From positions 1 to 44,793 of IMG/VR virus record IMGVR_UViG_2974628062_000001: DNA of 44,793 nucleotides; one strand, written 5' to 3'. How positions within the stretch are numbered: the first letter of the stretch is position 1; every line of letters begins with the position of its first letter. A program made the position numbers and the translations under genes. The DNA is from a virus (Duplodnaviria > Heunggongvirae > Uroviricota > Caudoviricetes). This document shows, in pieces, positions 10,302 to 18,509 of the stretch. The notes under the pieces are model-generated. The model made no database searches, was not told the DNA's origin, and saw nothing but the letters and a program-made list of their open reading frames with translations.

Positions 10302-11318
10302 ATGGCAACACCAATGACGGCAACACAAATTGTCGCTCAGCTAAAGAAGTGGGGAGTTCCTTATAAGGAGTATAAGGATTGGAAGAACCACAATCGTAAT
10401 CACATGGGTGCATGGGGTCCTGTAAATGGATTCATGGTTCACCACACTGGTTCCGATGGTAAGGACCAGCGTGAACTACTTTACGCGGGTATCTCTGGTC
10501 TTCCAGGTCCACTCTGTCACTTCGGGCTTGCTCAGGATGGAACTGTCCACCTAGTTGGATGGGGACGTGCAAATCATGCTGGTTCTGGTGACCCAGACGT
10601 TCTTAAGGCAGTAATTGATGAAAGCTATGGAGCCAATCCACCTGTAGACAATCAGTCTTCAGTTGATGGAAATGCGAGATTCTATGGTGTAGAGATTTGG
10701 TATTCAGGAAGTCACGCAATGTCAACAGCTCAGTATGCGACTCTTCGCAAGCTAGCATCGGCTATTTGCGATTTTCATGGATGGTCAGAAAAGAGCGTTA
10801 TCGGTCACGGTGAATGGGGAAGCCCAGGAAAGTGGGACCCAGGTATTTCATCAGGTAAGATGATGGATATGGCCAAGGTTCGTGCAGATGTCAAGTCTAC
10901 TCTTGGCGGAAGCAAGGAGCCGGACCCAGTTCCATCAAAGCCAGCAGATTCAGCAAGCACTCACACAGTTGTAAAGGGAGAAACCCTTTGGGCTATTGCT
11001 TCCAAGTACAAGGTGAGTGTTGACAATCTAAAGAAGTGGAACAACCTTAAGTCAGACACTCTTGACGTTGGTCAGAAGTTGTCTGTTAAGGCACCAGCTT
11101 CTTCAGGAGGAGGAACATCTACAGTGGCAAAGAAGGACGCAACATATAAGTCAGTCTGGGACCTTGATGTAGCAACCCCACCAAAGGGTCGTGAAACCAA
11201 GGAAAACCCAACTTGGGCTCCAGCATCTATTCTTCGTGGACTCTATGAGAATCTAGATGCACTGACCAAGAAGGTCGATGAGCTTTCAAAGAAGATTGAC
11301 GCACTAAATTCTAAGTGA
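10302..11318 (+). CDS. Endolysin: N-acetylmuramoyl-L-alanine amidase (Amidase_2) with LysM domain
   Basis: VHHTG, HFGL, RANHAG, VIGHGEW...KWDPG; LysM THTVVKGETLWAIASKYKVSVDNLKKWNNLKSDTLDVGQKL. Confidence 0.92.
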   Translation: MATPMTATQIVAQLKKWGVPYKEYKDWKNHNRNHMGAWGPVNGFMVHHTGSDGKDQRELLYAGISGLPGPLCHFGLAQDGTVHLVGWGRANHAGSGDPDVLKAVIDESYGANPPVDNQSSVDGNARFYGVEIWYSGSHAMSTAQYATLRKLASAICDFHGWSEKSVIGHGEWGSPGKWDPGISSGKMMDMAKVRADVKSTLGGSKEPDPVPSKPADSASTHTVVKGETLWAIASKYKVSVDNLKKWNNLKSDTLDVGQKLSVKAPASSGGGTSTVAKKDATYKSVWDLDVATPPKGRETKENPTWAPASILRGLYENLDALTKKVDELSKKIDALNSK

Positions 11319-11324
11319 TATAAT
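11296..11324 (+). promoter_or_regulatory. Near-consensus promoter in the 3' end of the endolysin gene
   Basis: TTGACG-N17-TATAAT. Confidence 0.8.
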
Positions 11325-11330
11325 CTAAGT

Positions 11331-11431
11331 ACAGCTTATGGAAATGAGTCCGAGCTGTCTGGCGACATTCGTGCCGCTAGCTTAGGATGTTTATACTTAC
11401 CGACTAACCCCTGCCGAAAGGCGGGGGTTTT
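11331..11431 (+). ncRNA. Candidate ~100-nt structured small RNA
   Basis: Predicted TSS at the base of hairpin ACAGCUU...GAGCUGU; second hairpin CUGGCG-A-CA-UUCG-UG-C-CGCUAG; ends in a GAAA-loop terminator; no credible ORF with SD. Confidence 0.65.
11406..11431 (+). terminator. Intrinsic terminator of the candidate sRNA / endolysin transcript
   Basis: AACCCCTGCC-GAAA-GGCGGGGGTT then TT. Confidence 0.85.
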
Positions 11432-11458
11432 GTCGTTTTCCGATAAGTGCGATATACT
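11430..11458 (+). promoter_or_regulatory. Promoter for the LamG gene overlapping the terminator U-tract
   Basis: TTGTCG-N17-TATACT; ATG 11468 is 9 nt downstream, no SD. Confidence 0.65.
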
Positions 11459-11467
11459 TTAATTACC

Positions 11468-13189
11468 ATGACTTACATTTACTATGCACTGAGAGAGGGA
11501 CCTATTGGATTGTGGTCTTTCGACAGTCTTCCACTAAACGATAGTTCCGGGTATGGTAATAATGCCACTTATACAGGAACTCCAACGACAACCCGCCCAA
11601 TTGTTGCGGGTGGCGTCGCGGCTCAGCATGTCGATGCTGGGGACACAATCAATTATCCAATCAACTCAGTAATGATTCAGGGTAGGGAGAGCAGAAGCTT
11701 TTCCCTAGAAGCTTGGATTAAGCCACAGAGTGGTACAGCAGCTCTGATGGTTCGAGACAACAGCGGACTCTTCCTTGACGACCTTGTTCTCAGGTTCACT
11801 GTAGACTTTGGTACAACAGTAAGTGTTGAGTACAATCATTTGAATGCAGGCGAAATCTACCATGTCGTGGCTACGTATGATGGTCAGTCCATCCTTCTCT
11901 TTGTAAATGGTCAAATGGTAGCTGGTCAGAATATCGACCAGGCTCTCGTTTTGGCGGGCTTCGATGATACCACTTCAAATCTCAAGACAACAATGTCATC
12001 TTCAATGGTCATGGATACACCAGCAGTCTACAACTATGCTCTCGACGTATCAGCCATTAACAGACATTATTTGTATGGAACTAATTATCCACAGGTAGTT
12101 AATCTCTCAACCATCAATGGTGGAAAGTACTACATCTTCTCAGATGCAGCCACTTCTGTCTATGAAAGCCTATCATTCGGAAACGAGGATTCATGGAATC
12201 TAGGTCTTATGGATACAACGATTACTTCTGTAGATAACAAATTGGTAAACGTATATGATGAGACAGCAACCGAATGGCTAGGTGGAACATGGACGTATCA
12301 ATTCTCTGTAGACCCAGAAACCGGCGCGGGTATCACTCTTAATGGTTCAAAGATTACATGGAACTCAAGTGTTCCAATTACAGTAGAAACATCAACAGAC
12401 AACACTACATGGACTCCAGTAGCGAATGGCGATTCTATCCTAGGTGTCGTAGACCTGTCAACAGGCTATGCAATCTCTGTCAGAGTGACCTTGCCAAATA
12501 CTGTAGATGAGCAAGCTTTTGTCGATAACCTTGACATTGTACTGTACAAGAGCAAGACAGTTCTAGGAAGTGACGAATCACTGCCAGCTACCTTTGTAAA
12601 TCCTCTGACAGTCAAAATTGCCAAGGATGACTACAGTCCCGCCAGTTTTAACGACAACGCTGGAGTTTTGCTACCAGCCAACAGTGGGTTCTCTGTACCA
12701 GCAGACACCGACTTTGACCCTTACTATGCGGTAGAGGCAACTGTGAAGTTTGATTCTAGCACACCGAGCAAGACGGTTCTGTCATTGGGAACTGCTTCTA
12801 TTACTTCAAATGGAAGCGGTCAGTGGGTATTCAGTGGACTATCAGCTCTCTATGTAGACGGAGTTTCAGTAACTTCACCATTCACCATTTCTTCGGGAAA
12901 GTGGCACCACGTATTGGCCGTACTTTCATCAGCACAAACCGCTGCCGTATACGTCGGAAGTGATTCCGGCGGGTCTGCTAACTATCCAATGCGTGTAGGA
13001 TATCTAGCTCTTTACGCTTCTAACGTTAGCTCATTTATGGCAGACGCAATCTACGATACTTGGGTTGGCATGTCTGCAATTCAGATTCAGGAACCTGATG
13101 TCGCAGTAATTGAAGAGTCTCCATTCGCATCAACAGGCATTGCATTCAGGGCTTACACATTTGATTGGGCTATTACTGGAGCTGGATAA
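11468..13189 (+). CDS. LamG/concanavalin-like domain virion protein (minor tail or head-associated)
   Basis: FSLEAWIKP...HVVATYDGQSILLFVNG (LamG); second LamG-like region GKWHHVLAV; beta-rich. Confidence 0.8.
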   Translation: MTYIYYALREGPIGLWSFDSLPLNDSSGYGNNATYTGTPTTTRPIVAGGVAAQHVDAGDTINYPINSVMIQGRESRSFSLEAWIKPQSGTAALMVRDNSGLFLDDLVLRFTVDFGTTVSVEYNHLNAGEIYHVVATYDGQSILLFVNGQMVAGQNIDQALVLAGFDDTTSNLKTTMSSSMVMDTPAVYNYALDVSAINRHYLYGTNYPQVVNLSTINGGKYYIFSDAATSVYESLSFGNEDSWNLGLMDTTITSVDNKLVNVYDETATEWLGGTWTYQFSVDPETGAGITLNGSKITWNSSVPITVETSTDNTTWTPVANGDSILGVVDLSTGYAISVRVTLPNTVDEQAFVDNLDIVLYKSKTVLGSDESLPATFVNPLTVKIAKDDYSPASFNDNAGVLLPANSGFSVPADTDFDPYYAVEATVKFDSSTPSKTVLSLGTASITSNGSGQWVFSGLSALYVDGVSVTSPFTISSGKWHHVLAVLSSAQTAAVYVGSDSGGSANYPMRVGYLALYASNVSSFMADAIYDTWVGMSAIQIQEPDVAVIEESPFASTGIAFRAYTFDWAITGAG

Positions 13190-18107: not shown

Positions 18108-18509
18108 ATGAGTTTCGAAACACTAAAGAAGGAAGACCTTCTAAAGATTGCCGATGATTACGGCGTAGACGTAAAGTCAAGCGACACAAAGGCAGTAATT
18201 GTTGCTGCACTCGCTGAGGATGGCGTCAATTGGGAAGACGTTGCAAAGACCGACAAGACGGTTGCTGAGATTGACTCTGAGCTTAAGCAGGAAGAGACAG
18301 TCAAGGCAGCAGAGGCAAAGGCACAGCTTCCAAAGCAGCTTCTTCGTATGCTCCGTGGAAATGGTACATACGAAATTCGCGGATATGTCTTCAAGCGTGA
18401 GCACCCATTTGCTCTCGTAGCTGAAGATGACGCAGAGTTTATCGTAGAGAATGACCCAGAGGGATTCCGCTACGCAACTCCAAAGGAGGCTCAGTCTTTC
18501 TACGGCTGA
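18108..18509 (+). CDS. Hypothetical protein with N-terminal Rho-N/HeH-like helical module
   Basis: FETLKKEDLLKIADDYGVDVKSSDTKAVIVAAL; AGGAGG SD. Confidence 0.75.
   Translation: MSFETLKKEDLLKIADDYGVDVKSSDTKAVIVAALAEDGVNWEDVAKTDKTVAEIDSELKQEETVKAAEAKAQLPKQLLRMLRGNGTYEIRGYVFKREHPFALVAEDDAEFIVENDPEGFRYATPKEAQSFYG

Follow-up and report, generated by a model that had tools for sequence, protein, structure and literature searches.

Several described systems resemble parts of the phage locus analysed here. Bacterial 3'-UTR small RNAs of type I, such as DapZ and MicL, are transcribed from a promoter inside the 3' end of the upstream coding gene, share a terminator with their parental mRNA, carry a conserved unpaired stretch ahead of that terminator and occur in two RNA forms. 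In phage lambda, the PR'-6S RNA-tR' gate places a strong constitutive-type promoter and a short terminated RNA directly before the late genes, and the put RNAs of HK022 and the lambda nut site (boxB) have one or two start-proximal stem-loops ahead of a terminator. The c4 RNA of P1 and P7 and the CI RNA of P4 (Rfam family C4, RF01695) are small phage RNAs in which pairing of the 5' and 3' ends brackets two hairpins; each is excised from a longer transcript and is complementary to sequences on that same transcript. Phage-encoded small RNAs are poorly charted outside enterobacteria, and we know of no small RNA described for Streptomyces phages.

The window that we analysed, the whole stretch of 44,793 nucleotides, covers the left 44.8 kb of a phage genome that is 130,473 bp long and has short direct repeats at its termini. 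Its closest relatives are the Streptomyces phages Annadreamy, Limpid and Beuffert of the family Stanwilliamsviridae, which comprises large, lytic Streptomyces phages, more than 125 of them sequenced, that have been isolated widely and serve in teaching. At the boundary between the lysis and virion genes lies a short structured segment, referred to herein as the RNA unit (Table 1). The endolysin gene upstream starts at ATG 10303, preceded by a GGAGGAGG ribosome-binding site, and the gene downstream, encoding a 573-residue laminin-G-like protein, is the first of a portal-protease-capsid-tail block that is syntenic with the portal, protease and capsid genes of Annadreamy. From the features set out below we propose, with moderate confidence, that the RNA unit is a stand-alone gene for a non-coding small RNA of about 100-109 nt, that it lies in the endolysin 3' end and is driven by an internal promoter, and that it is conserved throughout the Stanwilliamsviridae. 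The closest known kind would be the bacterial 3'-UTR small RNA with an internal promoter, and the likenesses are the features listed above for DapZ and MicL. Unlike those RNAs, the RNA unit is phage-encoded, its 5' hairpin is invariant rather than its seed only, and its putative long form has a seed complementary to its own promoter region. The host group of these phages is not known to use Hfq.

Table 1. Predicted and annotated features at the lysis-virion gene boundary, in positions of the 44,793-nucleotide window.
Feature	Positions	Strand	Basis and remarks
Endolysin gene, amidase_2 and LysM	10303..11318	+	Pfam and PHROG matches
-35 box TTGACG	11296..11301	+	Promoter scan; TTGA kept in 38/38 distinct homologues
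Extended -10: TG, one base, TATAAT	11316..11324	+	TG and TAnnnT in 38/38 homologues
Candidate P0 5' strand, positions -11 to -1	11320..11330	+	Complementary to linker; only in RNA starting upstream
Hairpin P1	11331..11358	+	Fold; starts at predicted +1; nearly invariant across family
Hairpin P2, UUCG loop in this phage	11359..11380	+	Fold; sequence variable
Linker CUUAGGAUG	11381..11389	+	Fold, alignment A1; unpaired in short RNA
A+U-rich tract ending in conserved UUAC	11390..11400	+	Alignment A1
Intrinsic terminator	11401..11439	+	Core hairpin 11406-11429, lower stem, U-run after each stem
Next gene's promoter: TTGTCG, 17 nt, TATACT	11430..11458	+	Promoter scan; homologue comparison
Downstream gene, 573-aa protein, laminin-G/concanavalin-like domain	11468..13189	+	Pfam PF13385, phrog_11584

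The promoter is where the first-pass annotation of this sequence had put it, a near-consensus TTGACG-N17-TATAAT (11296-11324) embedded in the endolysin 3' end, and its predicted start, the seventh base after the -10 box, is A11331, which is also the first base of P1 as that annotation held. The -35 box lies inside the last endolysin codons, and the endolysin TGA stop supplies the TG (11316-11317) of the extended -10 element (TATAAT at 11319-11324). With a score of 11/12 plus TG, this promoter tied for best among 18 promoter-like sites between 8 and 15 kb and was among the best in the whole 130-kb genome. Promoter geometry was counted on the 38 distinct homologous copies having enough flank: in every one of them TAnnnT stood 6 nt before the A of ACAGC with TG ahead of it, and the spacing from TTGA to the -10 box was 17 nt in 35 copies and 18 nt in the other 3. 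This geometry is constant among lineages that differ in the endolysin C-terminus and even in where its stop codon lies. Promoters of a similar TTGACA type cluster in the early and tRNA part of the genome, and the -35 boxes of the endolysin promoter and of the next gene's promoter are poor. Since the TTGAC-17-TAnnnT promoter is strong and of the early-region type, and those of its neighbours have poor -35 boxes, we infer that unmodified host polymerase makes an abundant RNA from it, probably from early in infection.

Folding of positions 11331-11431 gave a minimum free energy (MFE) of -37.6 kcal/mol (z = -3.35), and only 1 of 200 shuffled sequences folded as well. P1 has a 7-bp stem, a 2-nt bulge and a GGA/UCC helix under an AAUGAG cap, the hairpin that had been proposed to begin at A11331 and to be capped by GGA-AAUGAG-UCC, and the second proposed hairpin, with a UUCG loop, was likewise recovered as P2 (11359-11380). 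The proposed GAAA-loop terminator also stood, as a 10-bp G+C-rich stem at 11406-11429. Below it we found a lower stem formed by CGAC (11401-11404) and GUCG (11432-11435), the latter lying past the first U-run and followed at 11436-11439 by a second one. The 25-nt single-stranded tract described in the first-pass annotation needs shortening: an unpaired tract is present in the fold of the short RNA, but its CGAC 3' end belongs to the lower terminator stem, so that the unpaired tract is about 20 nt and the RNA, with a predicted length of 100-109 nt, may end at the second U-run.

An 81-nt core of the RNA unit matched 125 phage records by blastn, all of them from Streptomyces phages, and the portal protein matched exactly 125 Streptomyces records by tblastn. 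The RNA unit is present in 125/125 of the Streptomyces phage records with this portal type and is thus universal in this phage group; pattern scans found it in IMG/VR and metagenome contigs as well. Among the 30 blastn matches listed, no annotated feature lies beneath it. The unit is single-copy in this genome and in the 95 kb of Annadreamy that were searched, with no second copies in either. In the window, one occurrence of the 28-nt P1 motif was counted and 0 were expected, and host origin or mimicry was rejected because this motif was absent from 185,579 bacterial and archaeal genomes.

We compared 40 distinct RNA-unit sequences, drawn from phage records and from IMG/VR and metagenome copies, in an alignment (A1). 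Mean pairwise identity was 94.9% in P1 and 95.6% in the 9-nt linker, versus 60% for the last 60 nt of the endolysin gene that were examined and 67% for the first 60 nt of the next gene. Judged by these identities, purifying selection on the RNA unit is stronger than on the endolysin and virion genes that flank it. In P1, 99% of the alignment cells are paired; most copies have two G-U pairs there, and P1 of the window carries a compensatory change from C-G to U-A plus a change from G-U to G-C. P2 occurs in several distinct sequence types around an invariant GUGC, and single-sequence folds predicted the hairpin in 38/40 copies, the two Francob/Faust-type copies having ended before P2 in the folding set. 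Seven of the 12 terminator pairs changed on both sides, including the lower stem, which covaries among relatives (CGAC/GUCG, CGCC/GGCG, CGCA/UGCG, UGCC/GGCA and CAGGA/UCCUG). In both P2 and the terminator, sequence varies and pairing is kept. Unguided RNAalifold recovered P1 and the terminator, and the covariation score of 0.189, against 0.092 for shuffles, was reached by 0/500 of the shuffled alignments. Comparison among related Streptomyces phages, a check that had been suggested for this unit, supports structural conservation. Every one of the helices is more stable in + strand than in - strand RNA, which argues that RNA, not DNA, is the level at which selection acts. A small protein was rejected as the product: no + strand ORF of at least 20 aa lies inside the RNA unit, and P2 indels shift every reading frame among the relatives.

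From a separate promoter for the next gene, the first-pass annotation had argued that the unit is more than a leader. That promoter is conserved, 6-10 nt before an ATG without a Shine-Dalgarno sequence, so that the unit is not merely a 5' UTR. Its -35 box (TTGNCG) lies within the descending arm of the terminator, and its -10 box is exactly 6 nt before the ATG in 15 homologous copies, whose mRNA would be leaderless; in the remaining homologues, the window included, the distance is about 9-10 nt. No Shine-Dalgarno sequence precedes this ATG in any homologue compared; clear ribosome-binding sites do precede the endolysin gene and the gene at 18108. A gene that relies on leaderless initiation must have a promoter of its own; the terminator therefore marks a true boundary, and no protein depends on the upstream promoter. 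The gene directly after the terminator differs in some relatives: it is an HNH endonuclease gene in Wofford (L015:520-620) and another small gene in the StarPlatinum-type contig L021, and this junction appears to be an insertion point for mobile genes.

We also found that the invariant linker is complementary to the unit's own -10/discriminator region, comprising part of the -10 box and the discriminator, which is a new observation. In the common type this candidate helix, P0, sets CAAUCUAAGUA opposite UACUUAGGAUG. When folding began at position -16, P0, enclosing P1 and P2, was in the MFE structure of most variants, across the differing discriminators AAGGTT, GTCCTT, AACCAT and CTTAAT and in TATCCT-type promoters, where the -10 box itself pairs with AGGAUG(G). 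Both P0 strands changed together in copy L028 (CCUAAGGU with ACCUUAGG), and in copy L045 the pairing has shifted to UAACCAU with AUGGUUA. The native P0 duplex surpassed duplexes with a randomised -10/discriminator region at p <= 0.05 in about two-thirds of the variants, p-values that are not independent because the copies are related, and P0 was more stable as the + strand in 32/40 copies. It is weak in Annadreamy/Beuffert, Wakanda, Comrade/SparkleGoddess, L038 and L046, and in a fixed register only 85% of its cells are paired, register shifts partly keeping the pairing. From these comparisons P0 is probably real. Since its 5' strand lies upstream of +1, it would form only in endolysin read-through RNA that runs into the shared terminator. 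An RNA starting at +1 lacks positions -11 to -1, so that the linker's complementarity to them can be of no consequence there; this hints that a longer read-through form or a cis role may be what is selected. P0 is the main reason why our confidence in a purely stand-alone small RNA is not higher, and it qualifies the first-pass description of a self-contained small RNA: the conserved promoter of its own, the covarying terminator and the lack of an ORF agree with that description, but the linker complementarity points to a second, longer read-through RNA.

P0 is central to the reading in which the unit serves the endolysin mRNA in cis, as a 3' UTR or processing module, the read-through RNA being the selected form and the internal promoter secondary. 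P0, enclosing P1 and P2 just past the stop codon, would then set mRNA stability or make a nuclease site at which the mRNA is trimmed or a small RNA released. This is a serious minority possibility: persistence of P0 in spite of differing discriminators, the change on both strands in L028, the advantage over randomised controls and the + strand bias all favour it, against which stand the lineages with a weak P0, the imperfect fixed register, the relatedness of the copies behind the p-values, and a strong promoter whose exact geometry in 38/38 copies it leaves unexplained. A more elaborate idea, which we regard as decidedly speculative, is that the complementarity is functional and makes the locus a self-referential switch. 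Either the P0-P1-P2 three-way junction of the read-through RNA would sense a ligand or protein and decide the fate of the lysis mRNA, or the free small RNA would pair with its own promoter region, in endolysin RNA or in the non-template DNA of the open complex, and feed back on lysis-gene or small-RNA output; the same slight weight covers both versions together. In comparison with riboswitches, the junction does precede a terminator, but we found no conserved antiterminator alternative, the P0 5' strand is upstream of the predicted start, and the gene that follows is served by a separate promoter. The same P0-P1-P2 shape links the read-through form to the c4 and CI RNAs. Unlike them, the unit had no Rfam match at E = 10, its internal promoter predicts a 5' end inside the closing helix, and the host group is another; an immunity context is also missing, because these phages are lytic.

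The order of strong promoter, invariant start-proximal hairpins, terminator some 100 nt on and structural block is also that expected of a promoter-proximal gate in which antitermination controls the virion genes, comparable to lambda PR'-6S-tR', nut or put. Unmodified polymerase would make the short RNA, and the nascent P1 and P2, with or without a phage protein, would cause the terminator to be ignored and the 30-kb late block to be read. The invariance of P1, loops included, would suit recognition by a protein or by polymerase. We nevertheless consider such a gate rather unlikely. The next gene is leaderless and has no Shine-Dalgarno sequence, so its translation depends on a start at its own promoter, not on read-through, a difference from both the lambda gate and the put and nut elements, to which the likeness is one of architecture only. 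Further promoter-terminator pairs split the late block, the terminator is long, G+C-rich and conserved, and no Q-family protein (PF06530, PF03589) was found in the genome by six-frame searches, nor was a NusG-like (PF02357) or sigma region 2 (PF04542) protein found there. The unit also differs from the lambda gate in being structured and conserved at the RNA level, with G-U pairs and compensatory changes. Those same properties make it very improbable that the inverted repeats are a DNA-only element, an operator or protein-binding site at the promoter start, with an RNA that has no role of its own. P1 does cover +1 to +28, the usual operator position, and in the window it is a near-perfect DNA palindrome (ACAGCT ... 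AGCTGT), but the two G-U pairs of most relatives would be mismatches in DNA, all four helices are more stable as + strand RNA, and pairing in P2 and the terminator survives sequence change. Against the small RNA reading that we propose, the near-invariance of P1 could still come partly from DNA-level constraint at the start site. Least credible to us is that the RNA is a Y RNA bound by the Ro60-like protein that this phage encodes. Ro60/TROVE proteins are encoded by this genome and also in 117 Streptomyces phage records, and P1 contains GUCCGA or GUCCGG, recalling the GGUCCGA contacted by Ro60 (PMC4201824). A YrlA-type Y RNA is recognised by its position beside Ro60, an end-closed stem, tRNA-like T and D arms and a GNCGAA-type motif near the 5' end (PMC4201824). 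The RNA unit, however, lies 57 kb from the Ro gene and lacks a tRNA-like domain, T-loop and D-loop; it has no GNCGAA near its 5' end, its GUCCGR is on the 3' side of P1, and the Ro gene has a much better candidate about 1 kb upstream of it. Annadreamy, moreover, has the RNA unit, yet no Ro-like protein is annotated in its bases 1-95,000.

The Ro60-like protein of this phage, which has TROVE and vWA_Ro60 domains, is encoded outside the window (L060:1408-3024 of the same genome). An ORF-free gap about 1 kb upstream of its gene contains a candidate YrlA-type Y RNA (L060:348-528, bases 66990-67170; z = -3.8). A 15-bp stem closes it, its other elements are a T-arm-like GUCGGUUCGAAUCCGGC and two hairpins, one acceptor-like and one D-arm-like, and a CGGGUCGGA motif recurs near it. 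This candidate had no Rfam match. As a positive control, the YrlA beside the Ro gene of mycobacteriophage Catera also gave no match, so the absence of a Y RNA match in Rfam is uninformative. A T-loop-like GGTTCGAATCC occurs at bases ~65967 and 67060 in the tRNA cluster, outside the tRNAs called by ARAGORN; one of these sites belongs to the Y RNA candidate, and for the other a tRNA fragment or an overlooked tRNA-like gene is possible.

Several other identities and targets were rejected. The first-pass annotation did not recognise the unit as a tRNA, riboswitch or CRISPR repeat; ARAGORN finds no tRNA or tmRNA there, there is no CRISPR match, and nothing in Rfam 15, including C4 (RF01695), Y RNA, riboswitches and ribozymes, reaches its gathering score. 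At E <= 10 the Rfam matches were chance hits driven by the terminator, the best at 18.8 bits versus a 55-bit cut-off. A CsrB/RsmZ-type sponge is disfavoured by the presence of only two GGA motifs, UAUGGA in P1 and UUAGGAUG in the linker; CsrA (PF02599) was not found in the phage genome. For a transcript-primed replication origin, cumulative GC skew turns at the wrong place, at about 6 kb where the coding strand switches and not at 11.4 kb. When the phage's own + strand was scanned for duplexes with the RNA, no complementarity stood out from a flat background. Gene 1 contains an exact 12-nt complement of the RNA 5' end at bases 300-311, with another copy in the terminal repeat; this match is close to the chance expectation and does not covary in Annadreamy.

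A homologue in the Rhodococcus phage Dorin found no statistical support: short collinear blocks are present, but neither the covariance model nor nhmmer gives a match, and the chain score is equalled by other segments of the locus. In Dorin the genes follow the same order (glycosyltransferase, ribonucleotide reductase, lysin A, virion genes), and the 343-nt ORF-free gap after lysin A (L058:5799-6140) holds a TATACT box, a CUACCUUAGG block and a strong terminator, and a stretch of about 240 nt in this gap folds well (z = -2.9). It may contain an unrelated or very diverged RNA at the same position.

We return to the reading that we prefer, a small RNA with its own promoter. We found no transcriptome for this phage family in the literature, and from the sequence we infer the transcript, its ends and timing, its action in trans and its partner as follows. 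Host RNA polymerase with the housekeeping sigma factor would start at A11331, from the extended -10 promoter overlapping the end of the endolysin gene. The RNA would fold into P1 at its very 5' end, a position from which this hairpin may protect it, and then into P2, leaving CUUAGGAUG and the A+U-rich tract exposed between P2 and the terminator. The strong intrinsic terminator would stop transcription, and the next gene would restart from its own leaderless promoter. The small RNA would then act in trans, with the invariant P1, including its loop and bulge, and the unpaired linker as likely contact surfaces for a conserved protein or RNA partner. Endolysin mRNA running into the same terminator would carry the RNA-unit sequence as its 3' end, with the linker sequestered in P0, so that the locus would yield two RNA forms, in the manner of bacterial 3'-UTR small RNAs with an internal promoter.

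For annotators of these phages, the RNA unit is a feature that is unannotated in the matches listed, and a covariance model is ready for finding further copies. The invariance of its hairpin and 9-nt linker implies that the host or the phage supplies a conserved partner, and the identity of that partner could reveal a step of host takeover or lysis control in actinomycetes.
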